DNA of 32,000 bases. Source: Cylindrospermopsis raciborskii Cr2010. GTDB taxonomy: Bacteria; Cyanobacteriota; Cyanobacteriia; Cyanobacteriales; Nostocaceae. Under the pieces are notes generated by a model, which saw only the letters and a program-made list of their open reading frames with translations, was not told the origin of the DNA and ran no database searches. The position numbers and the translations under genes are program-made. Numbering within the stretch: the first letter of the stretch is position 1; each line of letters opens with the position of its first letter. The stretch spans positions 2,550,001 through 2,582,000 of the forward strand of contig NZ_CP065936.1 of NCBI RefSeq assembly GCF_003367075.2. The letters are read 5' to 3'. Positions 5,160 through 22,875 of the stretch are shown here, in pieces.

Positions 5160-6029
5160 ATGGTAGTAGATTTCTCCGCCTTACTGTTAGGGTTCGAGTT
5201 CACCTCCCCAGGTCCCGTAGTACCTGGATTAGAATTTGGACCATTTGTTATTCGTTGGTATGGATTGCTAATTGCATCAGCCGTATTAATTGGCGTTAGT
5301 CTTGCCCAGCATCTGGCCAAACGTCGTCATTTACATCCCGATATCATCAGTGATTTATCCGTTTGGCTGGTAGTGGGAGCTATTCCAGCTGCGAGATTAT
5401 ATTATGTCCTATTTCAATGGTCAGAATATTCCCGTTCTCCCGGGAGAATCCTAGCCATTTGGCAAGGTGGTATAGCCATTCATGGAGCCATTCTTGGCGG
5501 TATTATAGCCGCTTTAATCTTTGCCAGACTTAAAAGAATATCTTTTTGGCAATTGGCAGATTTAGTCGCGCCTTCTCTGATTTTAGGTCAAGCTATTGGA
5601 CGTTGGGGGAATTTCTTTAATTCTGAAGCTTTTGGTGATCCTACAGATTTGCCTTGGAAACTATATATTCCACCAGAACATCGTCCTCCTGCTTTGGTAA
5701 ATTTTGAGTATTTCCACCCCACCTTTTTATATGAATCCCTGTGGAATTTGATGGTATTTGCTCTATTACTAACTTTATTTTTTCGGAGTTTATCTGGCAA
5801 ACCAGAATTAAAAACCGGAACCTTATTTTTGGTTTACTGGGTAGCCTATAGTATAGGAAGATTTGCTATTGAAGGTTTACGTACGGATAGTCTCATGTTA
5901 GGTTCTCTAAGAATTGCCCAATTGGTTAGCTTAACGGGAATAGTAGTGGGTTTAGCCGGTTTAGTCTGGCTTTATGTATACAAACGCTCCCTACCTGATG
6001 TAGTATCTCCTAGTTATAACCACCAATAA
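5160..6029 (+). CDS. lgt: Prolipoprotein diacylglyceryl transferase
   Basis: Polytopic membrane protein with the Lgt signatures [22 protein letters not shown] and [12 protein letters not shown] prefer the ATG at 5160 over the track start at 5085. Confidence 0.88.
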
Positions 6030-6179
6030 AAAATGCCCCAGAGTGTTCTCCAGGGCTTAACCAGGGTGCATCTACCATATCTTTCTACCACTCGCAAGCG
6101 GTGAATCCGGAAAACCATGGCGGAAATATTGAGAAATTTCATGGGAAAATTGGCAGAAGTTTCCTATTTTGGATGCAAC

Positions 6180-13444: not shown

Positions 13445-13518
<74 letters not shown>

Positions 13519-13526
13519 CTTGTATC

Positions 13527-17731: not shown

Positions 17732-18436
17732 TTATTTTTCTACAGGAATATCAGACAGCTGTAATTTAAGTTTTTGAGCAGGGTAGTCTGTTAGAGACAA
17801 GGTTAAACTACTCACATCGTTAAGTAAAGCAGTGGGGATGCTAATCTTACCCGTAAATATGGGCCCGTTACCTGGTAGCTCGGCGGGTAAACCATCTGTA
17901 GTAGCAGTCAAAACTCTGCCTTTATCGTCTGTAACATCTAGAAAACTATATAAAAATCTCACAGATTCATCAGACTGATTGTGCATTTTGACCTTGAGTA
18001 TGAGTTGACCACCGGAATAACTAGCTGACCGTACGGACATGTTTACACCCTCACTTTCAGCCACCACGGGAAATCCTGGCTGTGGGGGTTCTTCTGGAAG
18101 TTCTTGTGCTTTTTGTTGAGATTTATCTTTTGTGGATACGGTTTCTTCCTCTTCTTCGACCTTCCTTGTTCGATTATTGTTAGTCTTGTTTTTTTCTATT
18201 CGTTTTTTCACCTGATTAATTATATCCTCTTCTTTTAAGAAAGATATAGGGACAGATTGCAAATCATTATTCTTACTACTAATTAACTTAGATGTGGGAC
18301 GACCATCCGGTGATGTTACCCCCTTGAGAGCAGAGCTTCCCATAGAAAAACCCAAAAAAGCACTAACTGAACCTGTCATCAGCATCAGGGCTACCAAAAT
18401 TAAAGTTAGAACCGCAGTGGAATTTGTTGTTATCAT
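17732..18436 (-). CDS. Hypothetical membrane-anchored protein
   Basis: 234 aa. An N-terminal TM/signal-anchor is followed by a K/E-rich low-complexity linker and a C-terminal domain that looks beta-rich. Function unknown. Confidence 0.55.
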   Translation of the reverse strand: MITTNSTAVLTLILVALMLMTGSVSAFLGFSMGSSALKGVTSPDGRPTSKLISSKNNDLQSVPISFLKEEDIINQVKKRIEKNKTNNNRTRKVEEEEETVSTKDKSQQKAQELPEEPPQPGFPVVAESEGVNMSVRSASYSGGQLILKVKMHNQSDESVRFLYSFLDVTDDKGRVLTATTDGLPAELPGNGPIFTGKISIPTALLNDVSSLTLSLTDYPAQKLKLQLSDIPVEK

Positions 18437-18588
18437 TGTCAGACCTTGTTTAATAGCGATTTCCAGCCTAAACTAAAAAATTTTTTTTGGGTTGGCGTAA
18501 AATTATAAAAACTATGCTATGTTAGTTTGAGTTGGTTTGAACTTCAAGCAACTAGCGCCTTTGGCCGATTGGGGAGGCAACGAACTCA

Positions 18589-20871
18589 GTGCGACAGTCT
18601 CAACTCCATCCATGAGGGTGAAAGTCCCTCCATCAAGTCAGATGGTGACTCCAGTGTACACCTCTTTATTCTGACCCAATAGAGGGGGGAAGCAAGTACA
18701 CAAATCCAACGCTAAGAAAGTCCGATCAAAGCAGAGGAGAGGGAGTTCATATGGCTAACGAAAGTGAACCTGCGTCAGAACTACGGCTAAATAAAGCAGT
18801 GAAATGGACTGACACACTGCGAACAAAAGTTCAATGTGGCAAAGTAACCCCTATGTTGAGTGATAGGAACTCTGACCTTACAGACCACACCGTAGAAAGT
18901 AGGAGCCTAAGTGAACATAACAATGGTTGGCGAATAAAGACTGGGAACTAACTGTCTTGTAAACCTTTATAAGGAGGCTAAGTCAAAGCCTAAGATAGTT
19001 GGGAAGGAACTTACCTCAAGCCAAAGTCTACCTGTAATGGGTAGAATATGCCAAAAGGTAAGTGGCTACATTTCAGGTGAATCAAAGATGAAAGCCGATG
19101 ACTAAAGCTCAAGAAGCAGTATGGACACGTTTGGATTGGAATAACATCCAGTACAAGGTGTCGCGGTTACAATCCAAGATTTATCAAGCATCTCTGACTG
19201 GTGATAAAAGTTCTGTTGTTAAATATCAGAAAATCCTAATAAATTCCTACAGCGCCAAACTATTGGCAATCAAAAAGGTCACACAGGATAACAAGGGTAA
19301 AAAAACAGCAGATGGCGACCAGATAATCGACCTAGCCAAAAACCTGGAACTAGACGGAAAGGCAATTCCATTAACGAGGATGGAAATCCCCAAATCCAAT
19401 GGAGAATCCAGAAATCTAGGAATTTCAAAGATGGAAGATAGAGCCAAACAAGCCTTGGCAAAAATGGCTCTAGAACCGGAATGGGAAGCAAAATTTGAAC
19501 CCAATAACTATGGGTTTAGACCAGGGAGAAGCTGTCACGATGCGATCAGCGCCATTGAGAGCCAAGTCCGTAGAAGAACTAGCTATGTCCTAAGTGTGGA
19601 TATTAGTGGTTGCTTTGACAAGGTAAAACATGAGGCAATAGTAGAAAAGTGTAACACCTTCCCCATAATGGAACGCCAAATCAGGGCTTGGCTGAAAAGC
19701 GGAGTAATGATAGGCGAGGTATTCCATCCAATGGAAAAAGGTGTGCCAGTGGGAGGGGTCATTTCGCCTCTTTTGGCAAATATTGCACTACACGGACTAG
19801 AAACTCACATTTCCCAGAAATTTCCATATCTAAGTGCCAATCAGGCTCAAGGTAGGGTCGAGGAGATAGGGGAAGCTAGACTCATAAAATACGCCCATGA
19901 CTTCCTGGTACTACACTGGGAAGAAGAAACCATCAAAGCAGTAAAGACTGAAGTAGAGACCTGGTTAGGAGAAATAGGGTTAAACCTAAATCAACAAAAG
20001 ATCAGGATGTGTCACACCATGGAGGAATACAACGGGGAAAAACCAGGACTAGACTTTCTTGGATTTAACATCAGAACCTATAAAATAGGCAAGTACAAAT
20101 CCAATGAAAAAGTCAATGGCGAATTTCCGGGAATGTTAACTAAAATCAAACCATCGGAGAAGTCCGTGGAAAGATTTGTGAATGACATCAAAGAAACTCT
20201 AAATCAGGGACACGACAAAAACCCCCCGATGATGATCAAGCGGTTGAGCTGGATAATCAGAAGCTGGGCAAACTACTTCAAGTCAGGTAGCCACTCCTGG
20301 GAAACCTTTGGGGAATTGGAAAACCACAGGCTAGATAAAGTGTATCTAAACTGGGGAAGAAAAAGATTTGCCAAAGACGGTCTCGGGTACATACGCAAGA
20401 AGATATTCCATAAAACACCAAGAAAGACTAGTACTTTCGGGTGGAAGGAAGGAAACACTCTCTTCACAGTACCCACATTATACGAGTTCCCATACGCCCA
20501 ACACATTAAAGTAGAGGGAATAAAAAGCCCCTATGACAGAGATTGGGTCTATTGGACGAAAAGAATGGCTGACCACCCGGAAACACCTCAAAACATCAAG
20601 TTCGGAATAACACAACAAGAGGGTAAATGCTACTTATGTGGTCAAAACCTAACAGTTGAGGACTACCTTAAAATCCACTATATAGACGGAAATAAGAACA
20701 ACAACAGAAAGGAAAACAAGGCAGTAGTACATAATCACTGTCATGAAAGTCACCAAGAGATGACGGTATCTCAAAAAGAGATATTGGGTGTAGCTTGAAG
20801 CCGTGTGCGGTGAAAGTCGCAAGCACGGTTTTGCAGCCGAGTTATCCGAGTAATTGGGTAATTTAGGTAAC
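18589..20871 (+). mobile_element. Group II intron (2283 nt) with an intron-encoded protein in domain IV
   Basis: The supporting elements are:
- **5' end:** GTGCGAC.
- **EBS1 candidate:** TGAGT at 18857..18861 lies in the 8 nt loop of hairpin CCTAT/ATAGG (18850..18867) and is complementary to the last 5 exon nt, ACTCA.
- **Domain V (20798..20831):** AAGCCGTGTGCGGTGAAAGTCGCAAGCACGGTTT, with the AGC triad, a 2 nt bulge and a GAAA tetraloop.
- **Domain VI (20837..20867):** an 11 bp helix with bulged A at 20865, 7 nt from the 3' end.
- **3' end:** the intron ends in AC. Confidence 0.9.
19098..20798 (+). CDS. Group II intron-encoded protein: reverse transcriptase / maturase (X) / HNH endonuclease domains
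   Basis: 566 aa with RT blocks (LEPEWEAKFEPNNYGFRPGRSCHDA, VDISGCFDKV, GGVISPLLANIALHG), an X-domain-like SWIIRSWANYF, and a C-terminal CxxC...HNHCH HNH motif. Two catalytic-core residues differ from consensus: YAHD instead of YADD (19890..19901) and GVPVGG instead of G(T)PQGG. Confidence 0.9.
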   Translation: MTKAQEAVWTRLDWNNIQYKVSRLQSKIYQASLTGDKSSVVKYQKILINSYSAKLLAIKKVTQDNKGKKTADGDQIIDLAKNLELDGKAIPLTRMEIPKSNGESRNLGISKMEDRAKQALAKMALEPEWEAKFEPNNYGFRPGRSCHDAISAIESQVRRRTSYVLSVDISGCFDKVKHEAIVEKCNTFPIMERQIRAWLKSGVMIGEVFHPMEKGVPVGGVISPLLANIALHGLETHISQKFPYLSANQAQGRVEEIGEARLIKYAHDFLVLHWEEETIKAVKTEVETWLGEIGLNLNQQKIRMCHTMEEYNGEKPGLDFLGFNIRTYKIGKYKSNEKVNGEFPGMLTKIKPSEKSVERFVNDIKETLNQGHDKNPPMMIKRLSWIIRSWANYFKSGSHSWETFGELENHRLDKVYLNWGRKRFAKDGLGYIRKKIFHKTPRKTSTFGWKEGNTLFTVPTLYEFPYAQHIKVEGIKSPYDRDWVYWTKRMADHPETPQNIKFGITQQEGKCYLCGQNLTVEDYLKIHYIDGNKNNNRKENKAVVHNHCHESHQEMTVSQKEILGVA

Positions 20872-20930
20872 TAATTCGTCTTCAGGCTGGTTCGATTCCA
20901 GCAGGGCGCACTTAATTACAACAAAATTAA

Positions 20931-21599
20931 CTACACACCTGGGTCCTTTAGACCCAATTCATGGAAAGCTGCCCAACGTAACTGACAGGAGTCACAGACA
21001 CCACAGGGGTGTTCCCCACCACTATAACAAGACCAAGTTAATTCCCAGGGTACACCTAAGCGGTTACCCAACTGGATAATTTGGGTCTTAGTCAGATTGA
21101 TCAGGGGTGCGATAATATCAATAGGTTTTCCTTCCCGACCCTGTTTAGTTCCAAGACGGAACACCTCCTGCATGGCGTGGATATAATCAGGACGACAGTC
21201 AGGATAGCCAGAATAATCTAAAGCGTTAACACCTATATATACCCGTTCAGCCCTAATTGCTTCAGCATAGGCGAGACCAAAGCTCAAAAAAATGGTATTC
21301 CGAGCGGGGACATAGGTTATGGGAATAGACTCCGACATTTGGTCTAGGGGACGATTATGAGGAACAGGGATGGAATTATCAGTTAAAGCTGATCCCCCCC
21401 AAGAACGTAAATCAAAAGTGACCAGTTGATGTTCAACCACTCCTAGGGATTGGGCGATAGACATAGCTGATTGTAACTCGCGCCGATGTCGCTGGTGATA
21501 ATCAAAAGAAATAGCATAGCATTCATAACCATCTGCACGAGCCTGATATAAGACCGTAGAGGAATCCAAACCTCCGGACAAAAGAATTACAGCCTTCAT
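20931..21599 (-). CDS. queC: 7-cyano-7-deazaguanine synthase
   Basis: 222 aa with a PP-loop (LLSGGLDSS) and a C-terminal zinc cysteine cluster (CYSGGEHPCGVCDSC). Confidence 0.9.
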   Translation of the reverse strand: MKAVILLSGGLDSSTVLYQARADGYECYAISFDYHQRHRRELQSAMSIAQSLGVVEHQLVTFDLRSWGGSALTDNSIPVPHNRPLDQMSESIPITYVPARNTIFLSFGLAYAEAIRAERVYIGVNALDYSGYPDCRPDYIHAMQEVFRLGTKQGREGKPIDIIAPLINLTKTQIIQLGNRLGVPWELTWSCYSGGEHPCGVCDSCQLRWAAFHELGLKDPGV

Positions 21600-21795
21600 A
21601 ATTGATTTTTGGTAAACTTCAAGGTAAATTGGGAATTGAACATAAAAAACATAAATTTAAAAAATTTTAAAATTCTTCACAAACTGGGCTACTATGTTAC
21701 CATTTGGATGGTTTTGCACGGATAATGTTTGACAGTTTAGTATAATTGCCAACAGCCGTAGCATTTTTTAATTTGGTGGTTGAGGAGAAAAAATA

Positions 21796-22875
21796 GTGCA
21801 CAACAATAGTATATCAGTTGCGGAACCGAACCTATACTCACAACGCACCCAACCGCGTGCAATTCGCATGGGGGTGATTGGGGTGGGTAACATGGGTCAA
21901 CATCATGCCCGGTTGCTCAGTTCTATGAAAGATGTGGAGCTAGTGGGGGTTTCTGATATTAACGTGGAGAGAGGAATAGAAACTGCCAGTAGATATAAAG
22001 TTAGATTTTTTGAAGAATACTGTGATTTATTACCCCATGTAGATGCTGTTTGTATTGTGGTTCCAACGAGACTCCATTATGCCGTAGGCATTAACTGCTT
22101 GCTTGCTGGAATACACGTACTAATTGAAAAACCTATTGCCGCGAGCATTCCTGAAGCAGAATCTCTAGTAAATGCTGCCGCCCAGTCCCAATGTATTTTA
22201 CAGGTAGGACACATTGAGCGATTTAACCCAGCTTTTAGAGAACTAAGCCAGGTGTTGAAGACCGAAGAGGTTTTAGCACTAGAGTCCCATAGGATGAGCC
22301 CCTATTCAAGTCGGGCTAATGATGTATCAGTGGTACTAGACCTAATGATACATGACATAGACTTGCTGTTGGAGTTAGCTGGTTCATCAGTGGTCAAATT
22401 AACAGCTAATGGCACACGTTCCCTAGATTCAGGATATTTAGATTACGTCACTGCTACCCTAGGGTTTGCCAATGGCATTGTGGCCACTCTCACAGCTAGT
22501 AAGGTCACCCACCGAAAAATTCGCCACATCGTCGCTCATTGCAAAAATTCATTTACAGAAGCTGATTTTCTCAACAATGAAATTTTTATTCATCGACAAA
22601 ATACCAATCCCCAGAACGACCGTCAGACTCTTTATAGACAAGATGGCATCATAGAAAAAGTCTATACTAGTAACATTCAACCCTTAAGTGCCGAGTTGGA
22701 ACATTTTGTCAACTGTGTACGTGGAGGTAATCAGCCCTCCGTGGGTGGTGAACAAGCTCTAAAAGCTTTGAGACTGGCCAGCTTAATTGAGCAAATGGCC
22801 CTGGAAGAAAGAGTTTGGAATCCGTTAGAATGGCAGACTGAATCTGTGTCCCAATCCCTAACCTCTAGCGTTTAG
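21796..22875 (+). CDS. Gfo/Idh/MocA-family NAD(P)-dependent oxidoreductase
   Basis: Rossmann motif MGVIGVGNMGQHH, an EKP motif (LIEKPIA) and a C-terminal alpha/beta domain. The start is uncertain: GTG at 21796 or ATG at 21868. Confidence 0.8.
   Translation: MHNNSISVAEPNLYSQRTQPRAIRMGVIGVGNMGQHHARLLSSMKDVELVGVSDINVERGIETASRYKVRFFEEYCDLLPHVDAVCIVVPTRLHYAVGINCLLAGIHVLIEKPIAASIPEAESLVNAAAQSQCILQVGHIERFNPAFRELSQVLKTEEVLALESHRMSPYSSRANDVSVVLDLMIHDIDLLLELAGSSVVKLTANGTRSLDSGYLDYVTATLGFANGIVATLTASKVTHRKIRHIVAHCKNSFTEADFLNNEIFIHRQNTNPQNDRQTLYRQDGIIEKVYTSNIQPLSAELEHFVNCVRGGNQPSVGGEQALKALRLASLIEQMALEERVWNPLEWQTESVSQSLTSSV

Follow-up and report, generated by a model that had tools for sequence, protein, structure and literature searches.

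A stretch of 32,000 nucleotides (nt) from Cylindrospermopsis raciborskii Cr2010 (contig NZ_CP065936.1, positions 2,550,001 to 2,582,000 of the forward strand; this whole stretch is called the window below) carries a tRNA gene with the anticodon CAU that is interrupted inside the anticodon, between nt 35 and 36, by a complete group II intron. The host gene looks most like tRNA-Ile2, the lysidine-bearing tRNA that decodes AUA codons, and not like tRNA-Met. Judging from comparisons of sequences, it is likely that the gene is a living one rather than a dead one, the intron being spliced, largely immobile and dependent on a maturase, and its host tRNA being needed by the cell. The features on which this reading is built are listed here in window coordinates.

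18555..18588, plus strand: exon 1 of the tRNA(CAU) gene, probably tRNA-Ile2; 34 nt, the same as the 5' portion of the intact gene in 56 genomes
18589..20871, plus strand: group IIB (chloroplast-like, CL) intron, 2,283 nt, complete
18589..18593, plus strand: 5' splice-site consensus GUGCG; 8 of the 9 related introns keep it, L217 having GUACG instead
18750..18754, plus strand: UAUGG half of the 11-nt tetraloop receptor (zeta), a motif reading only
18850..18867, plus strand: domain I hairpin with exon-binding site 1 (EBS1); stem CCUAU/AUAGG, loop GUUGAGUG, EBS1 UGAGU at 18857-18861
18906..18911, plus strand: CCUAAG half of the tetraloop receptor (zeta), a conserved alignment column; motif assignment only
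19098..20798, plus strand: intron-encoded protein of 566 amino acids (aa), domain order RT-X-D-En-like, encoded in domain IV
20798..20831, plus strand: domain V, the catalytic hairpin, with GAAA tetraloop and 2-nt bulge; matches RF00029
20836..20868, plus strand: domain VI; its branch-point A (20865) is bulged and lies seven nt before the 3' end; compensatory changes in most stem pairs
20872..20910, plus strand: exon 2 of the tRNA(CAU) gene, probably tRNA-Ile2; 39 nt, from anticodon U36 to discriminator A73

The split tRNA gene

Exon 1 corresponds to nt 1-35 of the tRNA in standard numbering and ends with anticodon nucleotides C34 and A35, the sequence running ...AACUCA and then into the GUGCG of the intron; its final five nt, ACUCA (tRNA nt 31-35), constitute intron-binding site 1 (IBS1). 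At the other end the insert closes with ...UUUAGGUAAC and is followed by exon 2, which begins UAAUUCGU..., has U36 as its first nucleotide (presumably IBS3) and encodes no CCA at its end. Joined together, the exons give 73 nt and reproduce exactly the cloverleaf sequence that an earlier, sequence-only reading of the window had assembled from pieces of 34 and 39 nt. ARAGORN calls this 73-mer tRNA(cat), anticodon CAU, with a 7-bp acceptor stem, a 5-bp anticodon stem, a CUCAUAA loop, a 6-nt variable loop and a UUCGAUU T loop. The same program sees no tRNA in the unspliced region, and the only tRNA that it calls in the raw window is an initiator-type one at 13445-13519.

Uninterrupted alleles were sought by scanning one genome per bacterial species with the last 26 nt of exon 2, which returned at least 120 loci, all of them in cyanobacteria (among the matches listed are Nostoc, Anabaena, Dolichospermum, Sphaerospermopsis, Okeania, Trichodesmium, Lyngbya and other genera). 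Among the 120 loci listed, 56 have an uninterrupted gene that equals the spliced 73-mer base for base, so that intron-less alleles of the kind the sequence-only reading had suggested looking for are present in relatives. A further 60 are intact variants, differing mainly by compensating changes in the anticodon stem; the other four of the 120 (116 being intact) are two genes truncated by the edge of the locus and two incomplete duplicates of the 3' part. On the Rfam tRNA model the intact allele reaches 51 bits. Because the joined exons are identical to intact alleles of other genomes, the junction at CA/U (nt 35/36), which had been placed at the same point from the letters alone, can be taken as exact, and it cannot be slid, since the intron begins with G and ends with C while exon 2 begins with T and exon 1 ends with A. 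The D loop and the 6-nt variable loop, earlier described as slightly atypical, do have an unusual form, but this form is a conserved trait of the tRNA family and not damage.

In addition to whole genes, lone copies of the last ~26 nt of the tRNA were found beside unrelated DNA in Trichormus sp. NMC-1 (scaffold4; L030 and L032), where the partial copy lies ~6.6 kb from the intact tRNA gene, and in a metagenome-assembled Nostocaceae genome (L063). From their sequence, such partial 3' copies look like the attachment-site duplicate of an element integrated at the 3' end of the tRNA.

The ribozyme

The structure of the intron was examined in an alignment of nine related introns, with an alifold consensus for domain VI. 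The stem of the EBS1 hairpin covaries among the nine (CCUAU/AUAGG, CUCAU/AUGAG, CUGGG/CCCAG and CCAAGG/CCUUGG) with the loop sequence UGAGU kept, and UGAGU, which pairs with ACUCA in 8 of the 9 introns, is the sole segment that is consistently complementary to the 5' exon. Domains V and VI match the Rfam family Intron_gpII (RF00029) with 47.5 bits (gathering score 40). Together they have 28 consensus pairs, 13 of them with compensatory double changes and only 3 of 224 cells unpaired; in domain V taken by itself compensatory double changes occur at 5 of the 14 pairs, and all 14 stay paired throughout the nine introns. The terminal AC lies at 20870-20871. Four elements named by the sequence-only reading are thus recovered: the GUGCG 5' end (18589-18593), the hairpin loop whose UGAGU (18857..18861) pairs with the last five nt of the exon, a canonical domain V, and a bulged A (A20865) seven nt before the terminal AC. 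The two halves of the receptor motif, UAUGG and CCUAAG, are proposed on sequence grounds to form the docking site for the GAAA loop of domain V.

A 66-aa open reading frame (ORF) within domain I (18751-18951, plus strand) is called as a gene in the public assemblies of L208, L210-L212, L214 and L230. It overlaps conserved ribozyme helices and is almost certainly spurious.

Identity of the host tRNA

We read the host gene as tRNA-Ile2 because three lines of comparison point that way: 1) scores against the Rfam family RF04354; 2) pairwise identities with reference tRNAs; and 3) orthology to the tRNA-Ile(CAU) of Thermosynechococcus elongatus. RF04354, named 'Plastid-ycf2 5'UTR RNA' in Rfam, matches the opposite strand of the tRNA (window 20833-20911, minus strand; L001 3437-3510, minus strand). 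Its consensus, when reverse-complemented, is a cloverleaf with a CUCAUAA loop, which we take to be plastid trnI-CAU, a gene situated immediately upstream of ycf2 in land-plant plastomes. The family thus appears to be the antisense of plastid trnI-CAU, and we used its antisense score as a proxy for that tRNA. This score is 44.6 bits for the intact cyanobacterial tRNA, 39.5 for E. coli Ile2 (ileX), 32.1 for E. coli elongator Met (metT) and 16.5 for the fMet tRNA of the window. In pairwise comparisons the tRNA shares 63% of its positions with the consensus of plastid trnI-CAU and 62.5% with E. coli ileX, against 48.6% with E. coli metT and 40% with fMet. The acceptor pairs C4:G69 and C5:G68 are present, and the window tRNA has both its D arm (UGGCCGA...) and its 6-nt variable loop in common with plastid trnI-CAU. 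Lastly, the host tRNAs of the window intron and its close relatives (see below) are 76-88% identical to the T. elongatus tRNA, which Mohr et al. named 'the single copy of tRNA-Ile(CAU)' (PMC2882425). The earlier hint of an Ile2 identity is thus supported.

The alternative that the host is an elongator tRNA-Met, and the intron the cyanobacterial counterpart of the one in florideophyte plastid trnMe, seems very unlikely. ARAGORN does give the label tRNA-Met, which is anticodon-based only, the florideophyte trnMe gene does have an RT/maturase-encoding group II intron in its anticodon loop (PMC3607583), and just 7 bits separate E. coli Ile2 from E. coli Met in the RF04354 control. Against this, the tRNA is nearer to plastid trnI-CAU and E. 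coli ileX than to metT, it shares its D arm and variable loop with the former, its T. elongatus ortholog is annotated as the single tRNA-Ile(CAU) (PMC2882425), and the florideophyte intron is reported after nt 36 whereas that of the window lies after nt 35. An elongator-Met reference was sought among the other CAU tRNAs in all fetched loci, and none was present there. AUA codons occur in every host gene of the window that was checked.

The initiator-type tRNA(CAU) of the window is a separate gene (13445-13519, plus strand; 63.3 bits), in which three G-C pairs close the anticodon stem and position 1:72 is unpaired (C with C). It has no intron; in some cyanobacteria the initiator tRNA gene contains a group I intron.

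Conservation of the split gene in C. raciborskii

In 109 fetched loci the tRNA adjoins homologues of the window's 234-aa DUF4352-like protein and of its CNNM/CorC gene; the split gene of the window is therefore the ortholog at the ancestral position and not a spare copy. The small RNA NsiR1 (see below) and the protein matches put the window in Nostocales; the intron-encoded protein is 99% identical to one C. raciborskii protein, and the flanks are 100% identical to those of UAM/DH-BiRr. The intron is found in all contigs that encode the window's QueC, as well as in the lineages reached through the upstream protein (the carriers being UAM/DH-BiRr, CS-505, GCA_002321935, GCA_012583295 and several metagenome or SRA contigs). 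A search for an intronless allele within Cylindrospermopsis by way of QueC and the upstream protein found none, every informative contig being intron-bearing (L232 ends inside exon 1 and is hence uninformative). Sphaerospermopsis (L002), the nearest genus sampled, is intronless. Some SRA contigs end within the exons, and we considered and rejected these as a presence/absence polymorphism: the breaks fall about one k-mer length into the tRNA, which is what we would expect from co-occurring species with the same tRNA sequence.

A second C. raciborskii lineage (L122/L123) shows how the parts of the locus have diverged from those of the window:

Flanking genes: 93.6-97.3% nt identity
Upstream spacer: 94% nt identity
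Exons: 73/73 nt identical
Domains V-VI: 73/73 nt identical
5' ribozyme: 95.6% nt identity
Intron ORF: 90.5% nt identity

Between the window and L122 the parts of the ribozyme are conserved as much as the flanks or more. These data bear on the possibility that the tRNA gene was simply inactivated by retrohoming, with AUA decoded by another copy of tRNA-Ile2 or by some other mechanism. Bacterial group II introns do usually avoid essential genes (PMC4424553), as such a view would have it. We nevertheless find it highly improbable, as the interrupted gene occupies the conserved syntenic position of the 109 loci and as both the exons and domains V/VI have remained identical at 73 of 73 positions against a flank divergence of 3-6%. 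The ribozyme is also far more conserved than the synonymous sites of its own ORF.

The intron-encoded protein

The ORF, whose stop codon overlaps the start of domain V, encodes a protein in which Pfam recognizes RVT_N, RVT_1 and GIIM (group II maturase). Among PDB entries this protein is best matched, along its entire length, by the one encoded in the IIB1 intron TeI4h (6ME0; E = 4.6e-61). Several of its motifs are eroded. The catalytic motif 5 of the reverse transcriptase (RT) reads YAHD and not YADD, as judged by alignment to the YADD position of the TeI4h protein; the two aspartates of YADD are needed for polymerisation but dispensable for maturase activity. In addition, RT motif 1 (TAGVDG...) has an 8-aa deletion, PQGG in the RT has become PVGG, and the 'HH' of the HNH endonuclease has become HY (YY in P0005), with the Cys pairs and the distal H-x-x-C-H kept. 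Pfam detects no HNH domain in the window protein, and among the proteins with 51% identity or more to it nearly all likewise lack this domain in their precomputed annotation. The intact YADD and RT motifs 1 and 4 of a retrohoming-competent intron are thus absent. With an RT site that reads YAHD, erosion in RT motifs 1 and 4 and HY in place of the endonuclease HH, the window copy is probably no longer mobile.

In spite of this erosion the protein has not been released from selection. Between the window and L122, dN/dS is 0.19 overall and rises from 0.08 in the X/thumb domain through 0.20 in the RT domain to 0.32 in the En-like tail. A broken polymerase site combined with purifying selection that is strongest in the maturase domain is best explained by selection for splicing, and selection for splicing would in turn mean that the tRNA is needed. 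Purifying selection of this kind, alongside a degenerate RT, is sensible only if splicing matters, which again speaks against a gene killed by retrohoming. Between the two options left by the sequence-only reading, a natural split gene and a tRNA gene destroyed by retrohoming, the evidence (synteny, invariant exons and ribozyme core, fixation in the species, selection on the maturase) favours the former, with the gene living and spliced. The maturase ORF itself contains 16 AUA codons, and the synthesis of the maturase would therefore depend on the tRNA that it helps to make.

The same data have to be weighed against a second alternative, in which the intron remains a selfish and active retroelement, brought into the tRNA gene by recent homing, whose RT and endonuclease substitutions are tolerated. 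The full-length ORF and the intact ribozyme are compatible with this, as is the fact that YADD and HH are kept in close members of the same protein clade (P0006, P0012, P0021, P0027 and P0034). In an alignment of the clade with outgroups and TeI4h, on the other hand, YAHD, the RT1 deletion, PVGG and HY/YY are common to the window protein, P0005 and the CS-505-type proteins of C. raciborskii. Moreover, a comparable substitution nearly abolishes mobility in TeI4h, where changing the native YAGD to YADD raises retrohoming from 2.5x10^-5 % to 3.4%, ~10^5-fold (PMC2882425). Across the sampled lineages of C. raciborskii the intron is fixed at a single locus, its divergence broadly tracks that of the flanks, and there is no second copy in the window. 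Recent homing by an active element accordingly appears unlikely, and we retain the reading of a largely immobile intron.

Related introns at the same site

Every inspectable intron whose protein is at least 51% identical to that of the window lies at the CA/U site of a tRNA(CAU) gene, in other cyanobacteria:

L124: protein 76-77% identical, CA/U site
Crocosphaera L128, L225 and L227: protein 64% identical, CA/U site
L221; L222, L223 and L130; L217-220: protein 52-55% identical, CA/U site

The host tRNAs of these introns have five different acceptor stems (GCGCCUU, GCUCCUU, CCAGGGU, GGGCGGU and CGGCAGU), each matched by its 3' strand, and the synteny with CNNM and DUF4352 genes is found at L217, L221 and L222 as well. 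That five more host lineages show this arrangement, with the cloverleaf kept by compensating changes in every one, also argues against an inactivated tRNA gene. Beyond this group the association ends: introns with proteins 39-45% identical (L131-L207) were tested for a tRNA location and none was in a tRNA. A T-loop-like motif in L188 was considered among these and rejected, as it is not part of a tRNA.

Compared with L124, the window intron is 94.3% identical in the 5' ribozyme and 96.5% in domains V/VI, while the synonymous divergence (dS) of the ORF is about 1.07, that is, at saturation; the tRNA that hosts the L124 intron is only 85% identical to that of the window and lies outside the conserved synteny. 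The first of these observations shows strong constraint on the ribozyme. The combination of a 94% identical ribozyme with an 85% identical tRNA outside synteny suggests at least one horizontal transfer, and is in this respect a point in favour of an active element. In the plasmid collection we found distant RT similarity only and in the phage collection nothing, so that the intron has no close relatives on the plasmids or phages of these collections, which weighs on the opposite side.

In L124-L126 (metagenome contig Ga0453949_0000014 and relatives) the YADD/HH protein is intact, and the host tRNA lies among TPR genes and a gene with a Phage_fiber_2 domain. The L124 host tRNA may be a second copy on a mobile element, acting as a vehicle for horizontal spread. 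More generally, members of the lineage that keep YADD look mobile from their sequences, and several others have lost it in different ways: besides YAHD we find YAND (P0014, P0016), YADK (P0018) and YGDN (P0023).

We put forward tentatively, as something possible rather than probable, that these introns form a dedicated cyanobacterial lineage which lives in the tRNA-Ile2 anticodon and is repeatedly being domesticated. If so, the RT site would have been lost independently (YAHD, YAND, YADK, YGDN) with the maturase domain kept, and the system would correspond, in free-living bacteria and still at an early stage, to the plastid trnK/matK arrangement. Splicing could then gate the decoding of AUA through the circular dependency between maturase and tRNA, and the lineage could be the source of the florideophyte plastid trnMe-type intron.

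Splicing and the state of the gene

A splicing pathway can be proposed from the anatomy and conservation of the intron, its boundaries, the EBS1-IBS1 pairing, domains V/VI with the branch A and the protein domains being given by the sequence and its comparison. A precursor of ~2.36 kb would be transcribed without an anticodon loop. The ribozyme would then fold, with EBS1 UGAGU (18857-18861) pairing to ACUCA (tRNA nt 31-35), and the intron protein would bind through its X/thumb (maturase) domain and stabilise this fold. The bulged A20865 would attack the 5' splice site to form a lariat, after which the freed exon 1 would attack the 3' splice site that follows AC. The ligated 73-nt tRNA, with its CUCAUAA loop, would finally undergo end processing, CCA addition and modification of C34 to lysidine by TilS. 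The intron would be retained because the host needs the tRNA.

Several observations count against this account of a functional, spliced gene. The EBS1-IBS1 pairing amounts to only 5 bp, and no EBS2 was found when 6-7-mers in each intron and 4-6-mers in each alignment column were compared with exon positions -6 to -19, an absence that would also suit a gene inactivated by retrohoming. A permissive Rfam scan of the intron gave no match at E <= 1 to the group II domain D1-D4 models, its matches being confined to domain V/VI, a plastid model of domain V and the antisense trnI-CAU family. No sigma-70-like promoter was detected upstream of exon 1 in a promoter/terminator scan of 18300-21100, which gave no excess over shuffles. 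As regards the protein, residual RT activity of the YAHD form is possible. The dS of the intron ORF between the window and L122 is 0.31, about twice the 0.10-0.19 of four flanking genes, which simple vertical descent does not explain; weaker codon constraint is a possible cause, or else past replacement or gene conversion by a diverged copy of the intron, and replacement of this sort is what an active element could produce. The choice of Ile2 over elongator Met draws on similarity and published annotation rather than on isotype models or chemistry.

Comparison with known tRNA introns

The sequence-only reading was aware of no characterised bacterial tRNA gene split by a group II intron, and reviews likewise give group I introns as the only bacterial tRNA introns (PMC4033280). 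This is contradicted by TeI4h (T.el4h), a group II intron in the single tRNA-Ile(CAU) gene of T. elongatus BP-1 (Mohr et al. 2010, PMC2882425; cryo-EM 6ME0). The two introns are alike in belonging to group IIB/CL, in encoding an RT-X-D-En protein, in residing in orthologous tRNA-Ile(CAU) genes, in having a degenerate YADD (YAGD in TeI4h, YAHD in the window) and in lacking an obvious EBS2, which in TeI4h is unreadable from the structure model (PMC2882425). They differ in their insertion sites. At the TeI4h locus (L233) exon 1 is CCAGGGUUGGCCGAGCG, the intron begins UUGCGAC and exon 2 is GAUGAGGCAGCGAACUCAUAAUUCGCC..., which places the insertion in the D loop after tRNA nt 17, in agreement with the G-13, G-14, A-15 and C-16 of the original description (PMC2882425), and not in the anticodon at 35/36. 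The proteins are only 30% identical, and TeI4h begins with U instead of the canonical G of the window intron. Close relatives of TeI4h (60-66% identity) occur in proteobacteria and other phyla, whereas the window clade is found in cyanobacterial contexts only. By these comparisons, two IIB/CL lineages have entered the tRNA-Ile(CAU) gene independently of each other, each at a site of its own. Non-canonical 5' ends recur among introns resident in tRNA-Ile, as those of L217-L220 begin GUACG, at position 1999 in L217, and TeI4h begins with U.

Among plastid introns the nearest analogue is that of florideophyte red-algal trnMe (Janouskovec et al. 2013, PMC3607583; also PMC13578239), which is also of group II, encodes an RT/maturase, interrupts the anticodon loop of a CAU tRNA gene and has been kept stably throughout a lineage. 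According to its authors its protein falls within the cyanobacterial/plastid radiation (PMC3607583). It differs, by the published description on which this comparison is based, in its position after the third anticodon nucleotide (36/37), in its elongator tRNA-Met host and in its location on a plastid genome.

The streptophyte plastid trnK intron and its protein MatK resemble the window system in that the host is an essential tRNA gene and the protein, without RT function, has kept domain X as a maturase (PMC4424553), and also in that translation of the maturase depends on the tRNA that it helps to mature. The trnK intron differs in belonging to group IIA and in lying at 37/38 of tRNA-Lys(UUU), and MatK has lost RT motifs 0-4 entirely and serves several introns in trans. 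The decay of the window protein is at an early stage in comparison, consisting of point substitutions and a single short deletion, and only one target intron is known for it. A bearing on how the plastid tRNA introns of streptophytes arose, which the sequence-only reading had raised, is unsupported, as those introns occupy different tRNAs and different positions. In cyanobacteria themselves, the group I introns in the genes for tRNA-Leu(UAA) and tRNA-fMet share with the window intron self-splicing, a location in anticodon loops and a patchy distribution; they differ in ribozyme class and mechanism, using a guanosine cofactor, forming no lariat, having no RT/maturase ORF and lying at 37/38.

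What is new here is therefore the insertion site and the site-faithful intron lineage; that a bacterial tRNA gene can be split by a group II intron has been known since 2010. Our literature searches on the intron in connection with Cylindrospermopsis, trnI or lysidine found nothing. Housekeeping genes are mostly spared by bacterial group II introns, cyanobacteria providing exceptions (PMC4424553), and an intron lineage that occupies the anticodon of a tRNA gene which is needed and apparently present in a single copy would be a corrective to textbooks and reviews, one that extends current knowledge and does not overturn it. The graded decay of the RT site with the maturase domain kept would represent the first steps, in free-living bacteria, toward MatK and the splicing-only introns of organelles. 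On a practical level, tRNA finders miss the split gene, so that genomes including that of C. raciborskii, a bloom-forming toxin producer, appear to have no tRNA-Ile2.

Neighbouring genes

In C. raciborskii, queC and a GFO/IDH/MocA oxidoreductase gene lie directly downstream of the tRNA (window 20931-22875), whereas in most other Nostocales (L003, L006, L016 and others) these two genes are situated beyond the CNNM gene. A local rearrangement has taken place beside the intron-bearing tRNA. Elsewhere in the window, on the minus strand at 6027-6077, we detected a single copy of NsiR1 (nitrogen stress-induced RNA 1), a heterocyst-related small RNA typical of Nostocales, with a score of 51.4 bits, above the gathering score.

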